Of a stretch of DNA of 64,000 bases, positions 36,132 through 40,684 are shown one piece after another (within the stretch, counting starts at the first letter, position 1; each line of letters begins with the position of its first letter). The position numbers and the translations under genes are program-made. Where the stretch lies: the NCBI GenBank assembly GCA_020250175.1, contig JADCEN010000001.1, positions 10,996-74,995 of the forward strand. The letters run 5' to 3'. The stretch is from Rhodobacter sp. Its GTDB lineage: Bacteria; Pseudomonadota; Alphaproteobacteria; Rhodobacterales; Rhodobacteraceae. Below the pieces are notes generated by a model. That model worked only from the letters and a program-made list of their open reading frames with translations, was not told where the DNA came from and did not search any database.

Positions 36132-36404
36132 ATGCAGCCGGTTGCCATCATCGGGATCGACCCGGCAGACAGTATTTTCCGGTGTCATGGCGCGGCTGCG
36201 GGTGCAACCGGTTTGGTCCGCAAGAAGCGGTCATACCCGCAACTCCTGCGGTCCATCGTGGCGCATCCCCCCTTTACTGCGGCCAGGGCGAAATGGCCGG
36301 GCGCACGCCGTCCCACGCGCGGGGGAACCATGGCCCGGCATCCCGCGCAGATGATCCCGGCGCGGCGGGTGACGCCCCGCAGTTGCGGGTCGCACCGACC
36401 GGGC
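36132..36404 (+). mobile_element. IS110-family transposase N-terminal remnant (degenerate, truncated)
   Basis: VAIIGIDPADSIFRCHGAAAGATGLVRKKRSYPQLLRSIVAHPPF...RHPAQMIPARRVTP parallels IGIDLAK.VFQVHG.D..G.vv.rkkL.R.qll.f...lPP...GHeVrLiPPayVKP. The remainder of the gene is missing. Confidence 0.45.
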
Positions 36405-37454
36405 TCAGTAGGTCGTGAACCCGCCGTCGGTCGCATAAGTTGCGCCCGTCAGGTTGGACGACTCGTTCGACAGCAGGAACAGCATGACGGCCACCTGTTC
36501 CGCCGGGGTTGCATCGCGGCCATTCTGATCGGACCATTGCAGCAGGCTTTTGGTCTTCAGAAGGGCGATGCCGGGCGGTTTGCCGGTAAGGGCGGCGCGT
36601 TGCCGCAACAGGGTCATGGCGCGCTCGACCATCGGGGTTGCGGTATTTGCCATGCAGACCGAATTCACTCGGATGCCGTAAGGTGCATAGTCAATGGCCG
36701 CGTTCTTTGTCAGCCCGTTGACGGCATGTTTGCTGGCAACATAGGATGGCGTGCCCCCGAACCCGCGCAGCCCCGCGACCGAAGCCACGTTGACGATGGT
36801 GCCGCCGCGCTTTTGCGCCAGCATCTGGCGCAGTTCGCTGCGCATGCATTTGAAAACGCCGGTGACGTTCACCCGCATGACAACATCCCAGTAGGCATCG
36901 CTGGCCTCATCGATCCGGGCCATGGCCAGATCCTTCTGCGCGGCGTAGTCGATCGGCTCTGCGGGGAAGATCGCATCCATCACGCCCGCGTTGTTCAGCG
37001 CGCAGTCCAGCCCGCCAAAGCGGTCTGCCGCCGTCTTGACCATGGCATCGCACACCGCGTTTTCCGAGACATCGCCGAAAACGAATTCCGCCTTCCCGCC
37101 TTCGGCCACAACATCGGCGACCACCGCCGCACCTTCGTCCTGCAGCCAGTCCACGCCCACCACATTGGCCCCTTCGCGGGCCAGCCGCAGGGTTGCCATC
37201 CGCCCCATCCCGCGGGCACAGCCGGTGACGATCACCGTCTTGCCGGCAAAGCGGCCCGGAATGAAGTAGTCGTCGGGGATTGCCACGACATTGGTCAGAA
37301 ACGGATCCAGCGGGTCTGCGGGATCGCGCGGCGTGGCGAAGGCACCGGGCACGGCGGACACCGTTTGCGCCCGGTCCTCCGGCGCGGCGGCGGTTGCCGC
37401 CACGCTTCCGGCGGCGGCAAGGCCCAAGGTCCTGAGGGCATCACGTCTGTCCAT
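36405..37454 (-). CDS. Short-chain dehydrogenase/reductase with a twin-arginine (Tat) signal peptide
   Basis: MDRRDALRTLGLAAAGSVAATAAAP, then a ~55-aa arm, then TGCARGMG, NNAG and S...YxxxK (SYVASKHAV). Confidence 0.85.
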   Translation of the reverse strand: MDRRDALRTLGLAAAGSVAATAAAPEDRAQTVSAVPGAFATPRDPADPLDPFLTNVVAIPDDYFIPGRFAGKTVIVTGCARGMGRMATLRLAREGANVVGVDWLQDEGAAVVADVVAEGGKAEFVFGDVSENAVCDAMVKTAADRFGGLDCALNNAGVMDAIFPAEPIDYAAQKDLAMARIDEASDAYWDVVMRVNVTGVFKCMRSELRQMLAQKRGGTIVNVASVAGLRGFGGTPSYVASKHAVNGLTKNAAIDYAPYGIRVNSVCMANTATPMVERAMTLLRQRAALTGKPPGIALLKTKSLLQWSDQNGRDATPAEQVAVMLFLLSNESSNLTGATYATDGGFTTY

Positions 37455-37487
37455 CGTCAAGGTTCCTTGTGTGGGTCGATTGCGGGA

Positions 37488-39245
37488 TCAGAAGGCGTAG
37501 CGCAGGAAGAACATCAGGCTGAACCAGTCGCCCGGATCCTCCAGCGCCAGGTCCACCGCCTCGCCCGGGACGGTGTAGGCGACCATCCCGTGCACATAAA
37601 GGTTGCGGCTGGCGAACCATTTCACGGTGACGTTGGCCTCATAGCCGTACTCTGTGTCGCCCAGAAAGGTCAGCGCCGGATTGCCGCCGATGTTGTTCAG
37701 GCTGTCGGCGTAAAAGGCCCAAAGCTGTGGCACGATCTCGATCTTGGGCGAGGGGCGCATCCGGGCCTGAAGGCGGTGCGCGATGACGTTGCTGTCCTGC
37801 ACCACCTTGAAATGGTTCGACCCCTGAACCCATTGCTCGCCATTGCCGCCCGACAGCAGCGGGTCCCAGCGTTCATAGGTCGCCGTCGCGGGGTCGTCGC
37901 CGGAAAAATAGCTCAGCCGGTAGCCGACCGATGGCGTCCAGGCCGCGTCGGCAAAGGTATAGCCGGCCTCGACATAGGCGGCACGGGCATCCATGCTGAA
38001 GTTGCGGTTGGTCTGCCGGGCGATCTCGCCGCCAAAGAACGGGCCGGGGACGGCCCCCGGTGCCTCCCAGGTGAAGCGCAGATCGACGGTCCTCAGCCCT
38101 TCGCGCGTGCCGATCACGCTGCCGGTCGGCCCGAAATAGGAAAAGTCCGATTGCGGCGACGTCAGATAGCTTCCTGCCAGCATCAGGCCCGGCAGCGGCG
38201 TGGTTTCAATGTTGATGCCGCCAAGGCGGGTATTGGTGTCGATGACCGGCAATTCATCCGGGTCGATATAGAACACCTCCAGCTTTGTCGTGTTGTAGGA
38301 CACCTGGCCAAGGGCCAGCAGGTCTGACGCCCAGCGGGCATTGGCCTGAAGGGCGGCACGTTCATCGCCATTGGCGGCGGTGTTGGCAATCAGCAGGGCA
38401 TTGGCCAAGGTGAACCGTTGCCGCCCGGCGGACAGGTTGAAGGCCAGCCGGTTGCCGCTGGCCGAGGTGCGCCCGCCGACGATGCCGATGTAGGCGTCTT
38501 CAACCGCCGTGTAGCTGCGGGTCAGGTCGGTGAACAGTTCCTGCCCCTTGGACCCCGTGGTCATCAGGCTGAAGGCACCATAGGCATAAAGCGAGTCTGT
38601 GACCGGGGTGATTCCAGAGATGCCCAGCGTCACCAGCCCCTCGACCCAGCCTTCATAGGCCTTGCCCGCCGGATTGCCCTGAACCAGCGGGTTTCCGGCC
38701 AGCATCGCCTGCGGATCGCCATACCAGGCATTCTGATTGGCATAGTACAGCCCCAGCGCGTCCAGCTTGAACCGCAGGACCGTGCCGTTCCGGTCATAGA
38801 TCAGCGGCAGGTCCTTTCGGTTGCCGGTAATCGCATAGCCGCGCCCCGTGCCGGTCTGGCCGGCTGCGGCCAATGTGACCGTCACCTGCACATCAAGCCC
38901 GCCGGCCCGGCCAAAACCCAGGTCATAGGTGATGTCCGCCACATCCGGATTGCGCAGCGCCCGGCCGATGGCAAAGGCAGCCCGGTCCTGCGAAAACAGG
39001 GTGCCAGGAAAGAAGGACAGCGCGCGGCGCACACTGTCGGTGATACGGTCATTCAGACCTGCGTCCGGGCTGGGGTTGGCCAGACGGATCGACACGGTTT
39101 CGATCTGGGCATTGTTGAACGGATCGGCAAGACCAACGCCCTGGGCGCGGGCAGATGTGCCGGGCAGCACCAACAGCCCGGCAAGGCCCAGGCCCAGCCA
39201 GAACAGAACAGGGCACAGGGGCCGGGCGACGACGTGCAAGGGCAT
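37488..39245 (-). CDS. Outer-membrane beta-barrel (alginate-export/porin-like)
   Basis: Signal peptide ...LGLGLAGLLVLPGTSARAQG, alternating beta-strand pattern, and an aromatic C-terminus ...FFLRYAF. Lies directly upstream of the Tat-SDR. Confidence 0.75.
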   Translation of the reverse strand: MPLHVVARPLCPVLFWLGLGLAGLLVLPGTSARAQGVGLADPFNNAQIETVSIRLANPSPDAGLNDRITDSVRRALSFFPGTLFSQDRAAFAIGRALRNPDVADITYDLGFGRAGGLDVQVTVTLAAAGQTGTGRGYAITGNRKDLPLIYDRNGTVLRFKLDALGLYYANQNAWYGDPQAMLAGNPLVQGNPAGKAYEGWVEGLVTLGISGITPVTDSLYAYGAFSLMTTGSKGQELFTDLTRSYTAVEDAYIGIVGGRTSASGNRLAFNLSAGRQRFTLANALLIANTAANGDERAALQANARWASDLLALGQVSYNTTKLEVFYIDPDELPVIDTNTRLGGINIETTPLPGLMLAGSYLTSPQSDFSYFGPTGSVIGTREGLRTVDLRFTWEAPGAVPGPFFGGEIARQTNRNFSMDARAAYVEAGYTFADAAWTPSVGYRLSYFSGDDPATATYERWDPLLSGGNGEQWVQGSNHFKVVQDSNVIAHRLQARMRPSPKIEIVPQLWAFYADSLNNIGGNPALTFLGDTEYGYEANVTVKWFASRNLYVHGMVAYTVPGEAVDLALEDPGDWFSLMFFLRYAF

Positions 39246-39350
39246 GGCGGGGCATTCCAAAATCCGAACCTGCCGCAAGTATGGGTGCATCCGCCGGAAC
39301 GCCAAGCGCAAAAGCCGGGTTCAGGCCGACAATCTGCCCAAAATGGGCGG

Positions 39351-39872
39351 TCAGTCCGCCAGCGGGGACAGGGCTGCGTAAAGACGCGCCAGCCGCTGAA
39401 GACCGCGCATGTCGAGATCGCTCAGATCGCGGCGCAGGGTCGATGCCCCGTCAACCGCAGCAATGCGCCACCGTCGGTCGGCACCTTGTTCAACCCACCC
39501 CGGCCCGGACATCTCGCTTAGCTTGCGGCGGACCGTTTCCCTGGAAAGCCCGGTCACATCCGCGATGCGCGACGCAGACATCGCAGCGGACTGACCCGAA
39601 TCCTTGTCGCTATGCCCGGAAGTCTGCGCCTCGATGTACCGCTGCCCCAGGACGGCCAGCACCAGAACCTTGGACAGGTCGCCCGAAAATGTCCGGGCGC
39701 AATCCGCCAGATGTTCCGTCAGAAACTGCACATAGTGGTATTGGACCCGCGCGTAATTGCGCTGGAACGCGTCAAGGACGGGTGCGGCGCGCTTCGGGCG
39801 CAGGTCTGCACTGCTCGGGTCTGAAGGCTCGTCGGTCACGCTGCTGCCTTCCTGCCTCAGAACACCGGTCAT
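39351..39872 (-). CDS. Winged-helix/HTH transcriptional regulator (uncharacterised)
   Basis: ...MSASRIADVTGLSRETVRRKLSEMSGPGWVEQ... is a helix-turn-helix plus wing. 173 aa. Lies upstream of the porin gene. Confidence 0.6.
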   Translation of the reverse strand: MTGVLRQEGSSVTDEPSDPSSADLRPKRAAPVLDAFQRNYARVQYHYVQFLTEHLADCARTFSGDLSKVLVLAVLGQRYIEAQTSGHSDKDSGQSAAMSASRIADVTGLSRETVRRKLSEMSGPGWVEQGADRRWRIAAVDGASTLRRDLSDLDMRGLQRLARLYAALSPLAD

Positions 39873-39920
39873 TGAAACAGCGGGCCGCCCCCCGTCCGCC
39901 GGGCGGCGGCCCCGTGCAGG

Positions 39921-40256
39921 TCAGAAATCGAACAACTCGCCCAGAAAGCTTTCGCGCCGCTTCTTCTTGTAGCCGCGACGGTAGTCATCGTCATCATCGT
40001 CATGTTTGCCATAGGGGCGGCCCTGCAGCGGCCAGGGCTGCTGCGGCGGCTGCTGATAGACGGGCGGCGGCGCAGGCTGCGGGGCCGCCGCGGGCCGTGC
40101 AGGGGCTGCTTCGGGGGCCGCACCCAGCGACCGCTCGATGATCTTGTCCAGCTCTCCCCTGTCCAGCCAGACGCCCCGGCATTTCGGGCAATAGTCAATC
40201 TCGACCCCGCCACGGTCGGCCATGACCAGGGTTTCATTGTCCACAGGGCAGCGCAT
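39921..40256 (-). CDS. TFIIB-type zinc-ribbon protein with a Pro/Ala/Gln-rich linker and a charged tail
   Basis: CPVDNETL...CPKCRGVWLDRGELDKI (CxxC...CxxC), then a low-complexity segment, a D6 run, and KKKRRESFLGELFDF. ATG at 40256 follows GGAG; the ORF-track start is 40286. Confidence 0.7.
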   Translation of the reverse strand: MRCPVDNETLVMADRGGVEIDYCPKCRGVWLDRGELDKIIERSLGAAPEAAPARPAAAPQPAPPPVYQQPPQQPWPLQGRPYGKHDDDDDDYRRGYKKKRRESFLGELFDF

Positions 40257-40684
40257 CGGCTTCTCCATCCTTGTTTCTGTGGCCAAGATGGGGGCGCGGC
40301 GGCGCGGTGCAAGTGCCGCGCCGATAACAGTTCCGCAGCCAGCGCCGGGGGCGGGGTATCAGCCAACCCGCATTTGAATGTGTCAGGCCGCCCCCGGCTT
40401 CTCCCGGAAGAGATTCTGGTGGCGATATCGCCCTTAGCCTGTGTACTGTTCACAGGATGGTCCTGTGACTGCCGACAAGAATTCCAAATGCGATAGCCGT
40501 GGGAGGAAATCTGCCGCCCCTTGCAAAACCGCGCCTGGCGCGGCATGGTCAGGCCCGAGCCGTGGCGATGGCGTCGCCACAGGGCCGTCGGGCCCGCTGC
40601 TTGGCGGAGTTGCCGCCTGTCGTCCTGTACGCCGGGACCTTTCGGGGTTCCGCCGCGTGCCGACCCCTTCGGATGAGGTCGGAG

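Follow-up and report, generated by a model that had tools for sequence, protein, structure and literature searches.

A predicted Tat-exported short-chain dehydrogenase paired with an AlgE-family outer-membrane barrel

A three-gene locus and its recurrent core pair

In a 64,000-nucleotide stretch of Rhodobacter sp. DNA (hereafter the window; GenBank assembly GCA_020250175.1, contig JADCEN010000001.1, positions 10,996 to 74,995 of the forward strand), three genes on the minus strand encode a small winged-helix regulator, an outer-membrane β-barrel protein and a classical short-chain dehydrogenase (SDR) that begins with a putative twin-arginine (Tat) signal peptide (Table 1). The host genome measures 3.9 Mb, and its nearest relatives in the public collection are metagenome-assembled genomes labelled Rhodobacter. 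The open reading frames (ORFs) reproduce the coordinates and order given for these genes in an earlier reading of the same letters (the original prediction), as well as the length and C-terminus of the barrel protein and the 33 nt between its stop codon and the ATG of the SDR gene, which lies at 37454 with an AAGGA sequence 9 nt upstream.

Table 1. Positions in the window of the three genes and of the main segments of their products
Feature	Position	Strand	Description
Winged-helix regulator gene	39351-39872	minus	ORF, 173 aa; weak HTH_Crp_2 and IclR-type HTH matches
Outer-membrane barrel gene	37488-39245	minus	ORF, 585 aa; Sec signal, C-terminus RYAF, Pfam Alginate_exp
Tat-SDR gene, type A	36405-37454	minus	ORF, 349 aa; classical NAD-type SDR, adh_short
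Putative twin-arginine signal peptide, SDR residues 1 to ~25	37380-37454	minus	MDRRDALR, Ala/Gly/Thr-rich h-region, ATA/AAP-type site
Family-specific N-terminal arm, SDR residues 26-72	37239-37379	minus	Conserved motif; invariant P-G-R-F directly ahead of β1
Probable POTRA-like domain of barrel protein, core residues 65-124, span ~45-125	38874-39053	minus	Profile comparisons
Alginate_exp (AlgE-type) β-barrel region, residues 242-564	37554-38522	minus	Pfam PF13372

The SDR and barrel genes recur together well beyond this genome. Across 80 genomic loci with 8-kb flanks, which harbor 108 copies of the SDR family, a barrel gene of at least 45% identity was found within 1 kb of the SDR gene in 71. 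Of the other nine loci, three feature a distant barrel (32-34% identity) at ~1.9 kb, two, both from Bosea, genuinely have no barrel, and four lie on contigs whose length does not allow a judgement. The barrel gene is positioned upstream on the same strand in 68 cases and divergently in six, all from Caulobacteraceae. Approached from the barrel side in metagenome contigs, the SDR gene adjoins the orthologous barrel gene in 49 of the 53 loci with enough flank, the four exceptions having truncated flanks. The original prediction had proposed looking for co-occurrence of the SDR and a porin across genomes, and both surveys bear it out. The pair is found in Alpha-, Beta- and Gammaproteobacteria, Bacteroidota and Myxococcota, with carriers among the Rhodobacterales, Hyphomicrobiales, Caulobacterales, Sphingomonadales, Burkholderiales and Lysobacteraceae as well as in Aquimarina and Archangium. 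Because the pairing is near-constant across several phyla, we regard the barrel-SDR pair as a real envelope module. The literature covered, which did not extend to subscription journals, yielded no account of a Tat-exported SDR that has a barrel as partner, and the module is apparently undescribed. As a unit of two to four genes it has moved between phyla; within the genus the barrel is encoded in 8 of 16 genomes, which marks the module as accessory, and a search of the PLSDB plasmids with the barrel returned no match.

Only two other neighbors recur when all ORFs of the 80 loci are clustered, namely a second, paralogous Tat-SDR (25 loci) and a homolog of the regulator (30 loci), the latter in agreement with the small helix-turn-helix (HTH) regulator that had been placed beside the pair from the window alone. 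The regulator family is small, with 105 homologs, nearly all of them unnamed; its winged HTH spans residues 94-138, and most homologs start at an internal Met to give a protein of 162 aa. A paralogous barrel subfamily of 31-42% identity occurs mostly without an adjacent SDR gene (loci L047, L048, L050 and L177-L191) and sometimes retains a homolog of the small regulator, so that the regulator-barrel pair may be the older unit.

Sequence and predicted structure of the two proteins

The SDR protein begins with MDRRDALRTLGLAAAGSVAATAAAP. A twin arginine followed by a hydrophobic residue stands 55-80 residues ahead of the Rossmann motif in 104 of the 108 family copies; it is invariant in an alignment of 22 homologs and occupies residues 3-4 in most copies, where it is part of a consensus [ED]-R-R-D-[VLI]-L-K-G that is followed by 15-20 Ala/Gly/Thr-rich residues and then by A-x-A or AQA. 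The NCBI Tat-signal model TIGR01409 (cut-off 16.7 bits) is passed by seven of the ten family N-termini tested, including that of a paralog in the same genome, and the remaining weak matches to the model are all leaders of known Tat substrates (NapA, TorA, NosZ, EfeB, HybA and PhsA). The genome also encodes TatC (G000:C42, 224.9 bits). In the window signal (DRRDALR), Ala and Arg stand where the family carries Val, Leu or Ile and Lys. We conclude, as far as leader sequences can tell, that the SDR family is Tat-targeted and the window copy a somewhat weaker member of it: the Tat signal assigned to the SDR in the original prediction holds as a family-wide motif in a genome with TatC, whereas the window copy itself falls below the cut-offs of both Tat hidden Markov models (HMMs) applied.

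The enzyme proper is a classical SDR. It scores 172.7 bits against Pfam adh_short (PF00106; cut-off 26.6), and the only families matched in Pfam and NCBIfam are of SDR type, with no Gfo/Idh/MocA fold among them; the Pfam Epimerase family scores below its cut-off, and no NCBIfam equivalog or subfamily model reaches its own. Assignment as a mycofactocin-coupled SDR (TIGR03971) was rejected, the score being 166.1 bits against a cut-off of 300 and the extra loop lying in a different region. The glycine-rich motif TGCARGMG (residues 77-84), NNAG (N154-G157), Asn196, Ser225, Tyr238 and Lys242 are invariant among the 22 homologs, and the Rossmann and catalytic set is as intact as first described. Equally invariant is Asp102 at the end of strand β2 (VGVDW), which in the alignment falls on the Asp that specifies NAD in the NAD-dependent enzyme 4ure and is the equivalent of Asp38 of Rv2002, a residue critical for cofactor specificity (PMC3023750). 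Taken together, these correspondences point to nicotinamide adenine dinucleotide (NAD) as the likely cofactor of the SDR, rather than the NADP of glucose-fructose oxidoreductase (GFOR).

While an earlier AlphaFold run on a 22-sequence alignment was unusable (predicted local distance difference test, pLDDT, of 57), its repetition with 136 sequences yielded an AlphaFold2 model of the mature SDR with a pLDDT of 95.4. The core of this model superposes on NAD(H)-bound SDRs with a VIA Z of ~36 (34-37) and root-mean-square deviations of 1.1-2.5 Å over ~240-255 residues. Near structures, 3pgx, 3t7c and 3uve among them, include isopiperitenol, carveol, 1-(4-hydroxyphenyl)ethanol, butanediol and 3-hydroxybutyrate dehydrogenases and 3-alpha,20-beta-hydroxysteroid dehydrogenase. 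Two insertions set the protein apart from solved SDRs, one of 16 residues following NNAG and one in the C-terminal substrate loop. These nearest structures, together with the occasional SnoaL and hydrolase neighbors described below, give a weak hint that the substrate is a small cyclic or secondary alcohol or ketone.

The N-terminal arm that separates the signal from strand β1 had originally been put at ~55 residues and is corrected here to ~47 (about 45-47). It carries the conserved motif LGPYxTPWDPPDPxIAGRQNIVPVPEDYFxPGRFAGKT and is modeled with two short strands at a pLDDT of 92-97. None of the structure alignments to the top 1000 solved SDRs extends ahead of model residue 37 (precursor residue 62), and those to the dehydrogenases named above begin at residues 37-46; the arm is therefore without counterpart among these solved SDRs.

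More than 100 full-length homologs of ~349 aa were recovered; in a library with 50% identity clustering, three full-length clusters are all that rank before generic 250-aa SDRs, and the family is rare, since its diagnostic peptides pick out 283 relatives among 185,579 species genomes. A quick tree separates two types: type A, with the long arm and including the window gene, and type B, a derived clade with a shorter arm (335-340 aa) that takes in all second copies following type A at the same locus. Type B copies are also found singly next to a barrel in Phenylobacterium, Rhizobium, Acidovorax, Roseateles and Archangium, and those of Pirellula lie on contigs too short to judge the barrel side. 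The in-genome paralog (C5:230684-231688) is of type B, with 56% identity to the window SDR, the leader MERRDLLKG and no barrel. It is found directly downstream of an orphan SBP_bac_5 periplasmic solute-binding protein gene (G000:C5:228467-232679; L003:6467-10679), and its further neighbors are an XRE-cupin regulator, an MFS transporter, a cytoplasmic SDR and a patatin-like gene; the C5 locus is a second, barrel-free context for the Tat-SDR family. A class-wide SDR search of 301 genomes returned the own genome only and says little, as just six SDR candidates per genome were scored.

The barrel protein carries a Sec-type signal ending in A32-R33-A34/Q35 (ARA/Q) and falls into the same family as the alginate exporter AlgE. 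Pfam Alginate_exp matches it with an E value of 6.5e-11 and 42.1 bits (cut-off 25.2) and matches its Aquimarina orthologue with 38.1 bits, the ESM Atlas groups it with 'alginate export family' clusters of ~590 aa, and its C-terminal aromatic residues are conserved. It is the sole Alginate_exp gene of the genome, and Alginate_exp is the sole barrel family detected in the protein, a Bac_surface_Ag or ShlB-type barrel not being found. Assignment by HMM thus upholds the outer-membrane barrel that had been described as porin-like, but the protein is not a plain porin, as a probable POTRA-like domain is added at the N-terminus. Genes for alginate or polysaccharide synthesis are absent both from the recurrent neighbors at the 80 loci and from the window.

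The evidence for that domain comes from the N-terminal ~170 residues, which lie outside the Pfam match. Sequence searches of the PDB with the barrel protein gave nothing, and a profile of 28 orthologues gave a weak match to the POTRA of Anabaena Omp85 alone (3mc8, E 0.31). A language-model search with residues 34-150 returned only POTRA clusters, at low scores of 0.76-0.78. Using hhalign, we compared the N-terminal region with 46 BamA/TamA POTRA units from this genome and its relatives and with 19 reversed or shuffled controls: the former comparison reached a probability of 93.7% and a score of 39.9 over 60 columns, vs. at most 19.7 for the controls. Pfam POTRA models do not match the N-terminal domains of the barrels. 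Taken together, these comparisons make a single POTRA-like domain in the barrel protein probable.

Proposed mechanism and its alternatives

In light of the conserved pairing and of the features outlined above, we consider it probable that a periplasmic, cofactor-loaded SDR works with its own outer-membrane channel. The barrel protein would be exported by the Sec route and inserted into the outer membrane, exposing one POTRA-like domain to the periplasm ahead of its AlgE-family barrel, while the SDR would fold and bind NAD in the cytoplasm, leave it as a holoenzyme via the Tat system and lose its signal by cleavage. Its periplasmic substrate would be a small compound, a secondary alcohol or a ketone, that passes through the partner channel, with the winged-helix protein predicted to regulate the barrel-SDR pair. 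The periplasm has no free NAD(H) pool, and the cofactor would therefore have to stay bound to the enzyme and be recycled on it. Such recycling may take the form of a redox-neutral reaction, for instance an epimerization or isomerization via a transient ketone, of a GFOR-like ping-pong between two substrates, or of electron transfer to a carrier, and the second paralogous Tat-SDR may supply a second half-reaction. Within this scheme we infer Tat export and cleavage, cofactor retention, the direction of traffic, any docking of arm and POTRA-like domain, and the chemistry itself.

If the two proteins are physically linked, the POTRA-like domain and the conserved SDR arm are the obvious candidates for the contact. 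In a more elaborate version of the proposal, which we put forward tentatively and hold to be rather doubtful, the POTRA-like domain would capture the arm of the NAD-loaded SDR to give an outer-membrane-tethered channel-enzyme complex, where substrate is converted on entry by means of a permanently bound cofactor and one or two SDR paralogs supply coupled half-reactions. Such a docked complex, if true, would amount to a periplasmic nicotinoprotein machine of a new kind.

Several observations weigh against a periplasmic SDR coupled to its own entry channel. The window copy scores 8.8 bits on TIGR01409, whose cut-off is 16.7, and 7.6 bits on Pfam TAT_signal (PF10518), whose cut-off is 22.7. Neither the two Bosea loci nor the C5 paralog have a barrel, so the SDR can work without one. 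No redox partner or cytochrome that could serve the bound cofactor, and no inner-membrane transporter, is conserved at the 80 loci. The barrel family was founded on AlgE, itself an exporter, and substrate entry via the barrel is accordingly an assumption.

Two alternatives keep the SDR in the periplasm and assign the barrel a different part. An SDR that keeps its Tat signal uncleaved, or that binds peripherally, could be held at the inner membrane on the periplasmic side and exchange electrons with the respiratory chain, with the barrel only supplying substrate. The Caulobacter ceramide reductase CerR offers a parallel, as it is periplasmic, peripherally membrane-associated and in possession of an NADH site, with a membrane redox partner proposed by its authors (PMC11087976), and the c-region of the window SDR, AAAAP, is a poor signal-peptidase site with a Pro nearby. 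In most relatives, however, the Ala-rich h-region leads into a clean A-x-A or AQA site, the h-region of the SDR is weakly hydrophobic, as in cleaved Tat signals, and the 80 loci show no conserved membrane redox partner beside the SDR gene; we judge retention at the inner membrane unlikely. The module could also face outward, such that the SDR modifies a periplasmic polymer or lipid, for example by epimerizing a sugar via a keto intermediate with bound NAD, and the AlgE-type barrel exports the product. Polymer-level modification in the alginate system is indeed periplasmic, the barrel does share its family with AlgE, and a redox-neutral epimerase requires no cofactor exchange. What speaks against export is that the 80 loci show, within 8 kb, no conserved synthase, polymerase, flippase or component for export across the inner membrane, that the substrates of the nearest SDR structures are small alcohols and ketones rather than nucleotide sugars or polymers, and that the SDR is of the classical rather than the extended type of sugar epimerases, with its Epimerase score below cut-off. 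An outward module of this kind strikes us as improbable.

The remaining two place the SDR outside the periplasm altogether, and to each we give very little credence. That the twin-arginine motif is non-functional and the SDR cytoplasmic, with the barrel neighborhood reflecting co-regulation only, would fit the subthreshold Tat scores of the window copy and the normally cytoplasmic location of NAD-dependent SDRs, but would leave unexplained why the twin arginine at residues 3-4, the hydrophobic stretch and the A-x-A site persist in 104 of 108 copies across phyla, seven of ten relatives passing TIGR01409; a cytoplasmic enzyme has no reason to keep a 25-residue Ala-rich leader, and the in-genome paralog adjoins the gene of a periplasmic solute-binding protein. 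At the other extreme, the barrel protein could work in the manner of Omp85/TpsB transporters and carry the SDR itself to the cell surface or into the medium, and both the probable POTRA-like character of the N-terminal domain and the strict pairing in the order transporter-cargo do resemble two-partner secretion. Yet the barrel matches Alginate_exp and not Bac_surface_Ag or ShlB, TpsA cargo is exported unfolded by the Sec route whereas the SDR bears a Tat signal for folded export, and a folded, probably oligomeric SDR could not pass a 16-18-strand barrel.

Known systems and the local setting

The probable arrangement of a cofactor-loaded SDR with its own outer-membrane channel has partial precedents. 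GFOR of Zymomonas mobilis binds its cofactor tightly and features an N-terminal extension ahead of its Rossmann fold. Both GFOR and the Caulobacter enzyme AAOR (CC1225) are nicotinamide-cofactor enzymes that are exported folded to the periplasm via the Tat system (PMC4628093); they share the twin-arginine signal and the type of cofactor with the Tat-SDR, and solve the missing-pool problem with a bound cofactor and two-substrate ping-pong. They differ in having a Gfo/Idh/MocA fold and NADP, where the Tat-SDR has a classical SDR fold and the NAD-type Asp, and GFOR is not known to have a dedicated outer-membrane barrel partner or regulator. CerR, a Rossmann-type protein with an NADH site that is experimentally periplasmic, poses the same question of reducing equivalents, its electron source being an acknowledged open question (PMC11087976). 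CerR is NDUFA9-like, however, acts on a membrane lipid and is encoded in a sphingolipid cluster, while here we find a classical SDR without lipid-synthesis neighbors, in a family that extends to many bacteria beyond the groups named as sphingolipid makers (PMC11087976).

Closest in fold are the carveol dehydrogenase-type SDR nicotinoproteins, classical SDRs with non-exchangeable NAD (PMC3023750) that figure among the nearest structures and best NCBIfam matches of the Tat-SDR. In contrast to it, they are cytoplasmic and tied to mycofactocin, and their extra loop falls in the N-terminal NAD-binding region, whereas the insertions seen here follow NNAG and occupy the C-terminal loop. On the barrel side, the protein resembles the Pseudomonas alginate export barrel AlgE in scoring above the Alginate_exp cut-off, and departs from it in its additional N-terminal POTRA-like domain (~130 residues), its Tat-SDR partner and the absence of alginate genes from the 8-kb flanks. 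With the Omp85/TpsB proteins BamA, TamA and FhaC it would share the succession of periplasmic POTRA and outer-membrane barrel, but its probable POTRA-like unit is single and missed by Pfam, and its barrel is of another Pfam family.

NAD(P)-dependent enzymes outside the cytoplasm are rare, and the question of how the cofactor is retained or recycled has been stated explicitly for CerR (PMC11087976). With its many solved relatives, conserved Tat signal, specific arm and one obligatory, unusually built outer-membrane partner, the Tat-SDR family makes a compact test case: once the substrate and the cofactor cycle are worked out, it would be clear whether chemistry of the GFOR type arose a second time in another fold, and the module would likewise put to the test the idea that periplasmic enzymes can have outer-membrane channels hard-wired to them.

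Among the 80 loci some neighbors occur sporadically, namely ABC ATPases (11 loci), Abhydrolase_9 (7), MarC (6) and SnoaL/DUF4440 (6). The Abhydrolase_9 protein (~565 aa, PF15420 and PF10081) is membrane-anchored and encoded near the SDR gene, mostly directly downstream of it (L021, L022, L028, L029, L039, L064 and L074), a possible hint at an ester substrate.

In the spacer between the regulator and barrel genes (39246-39350), which is conserved in close relatives, there is a conserved CATTYTGGGCAG box, and on the minus strand at 39278-39305 a weak σ70-like promoter, TTGGCG-16 nt-CATACT, which went unflagged in the consensus scan; transcription of the barrel-SDR pair may therefore start from a regulated promoter specific to it. 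No operator-type inverted repeats were found between the two genes, and the promoter and terminator scan gave nothing informative.

The long ORF at 36132-38327 on the plus strand, which runs antisense to the SDR and barrel genes, is an artefact, and a candidate IS110-type transposase stub just downstream of the SDR gene (36132-36404, plus strand) has no Pfam match at E 0.01. In the window a convergent FGGY-kinase operon borders the module on one side; on the opposite side are a zinc-ribbon gene and a creatinase-like gene in divergent orientation. None of these recurs beside the module elsewhere in the ORF clustering of the 80 loci. A 13-nt GC-rich inverted repeat with 92% complementarity (39882-39912) stands between the regulator gene and the zinc-ribbon gene (39921-40286, PF13453); it is probably a terminator that sets the module off from its upstream neighbor.

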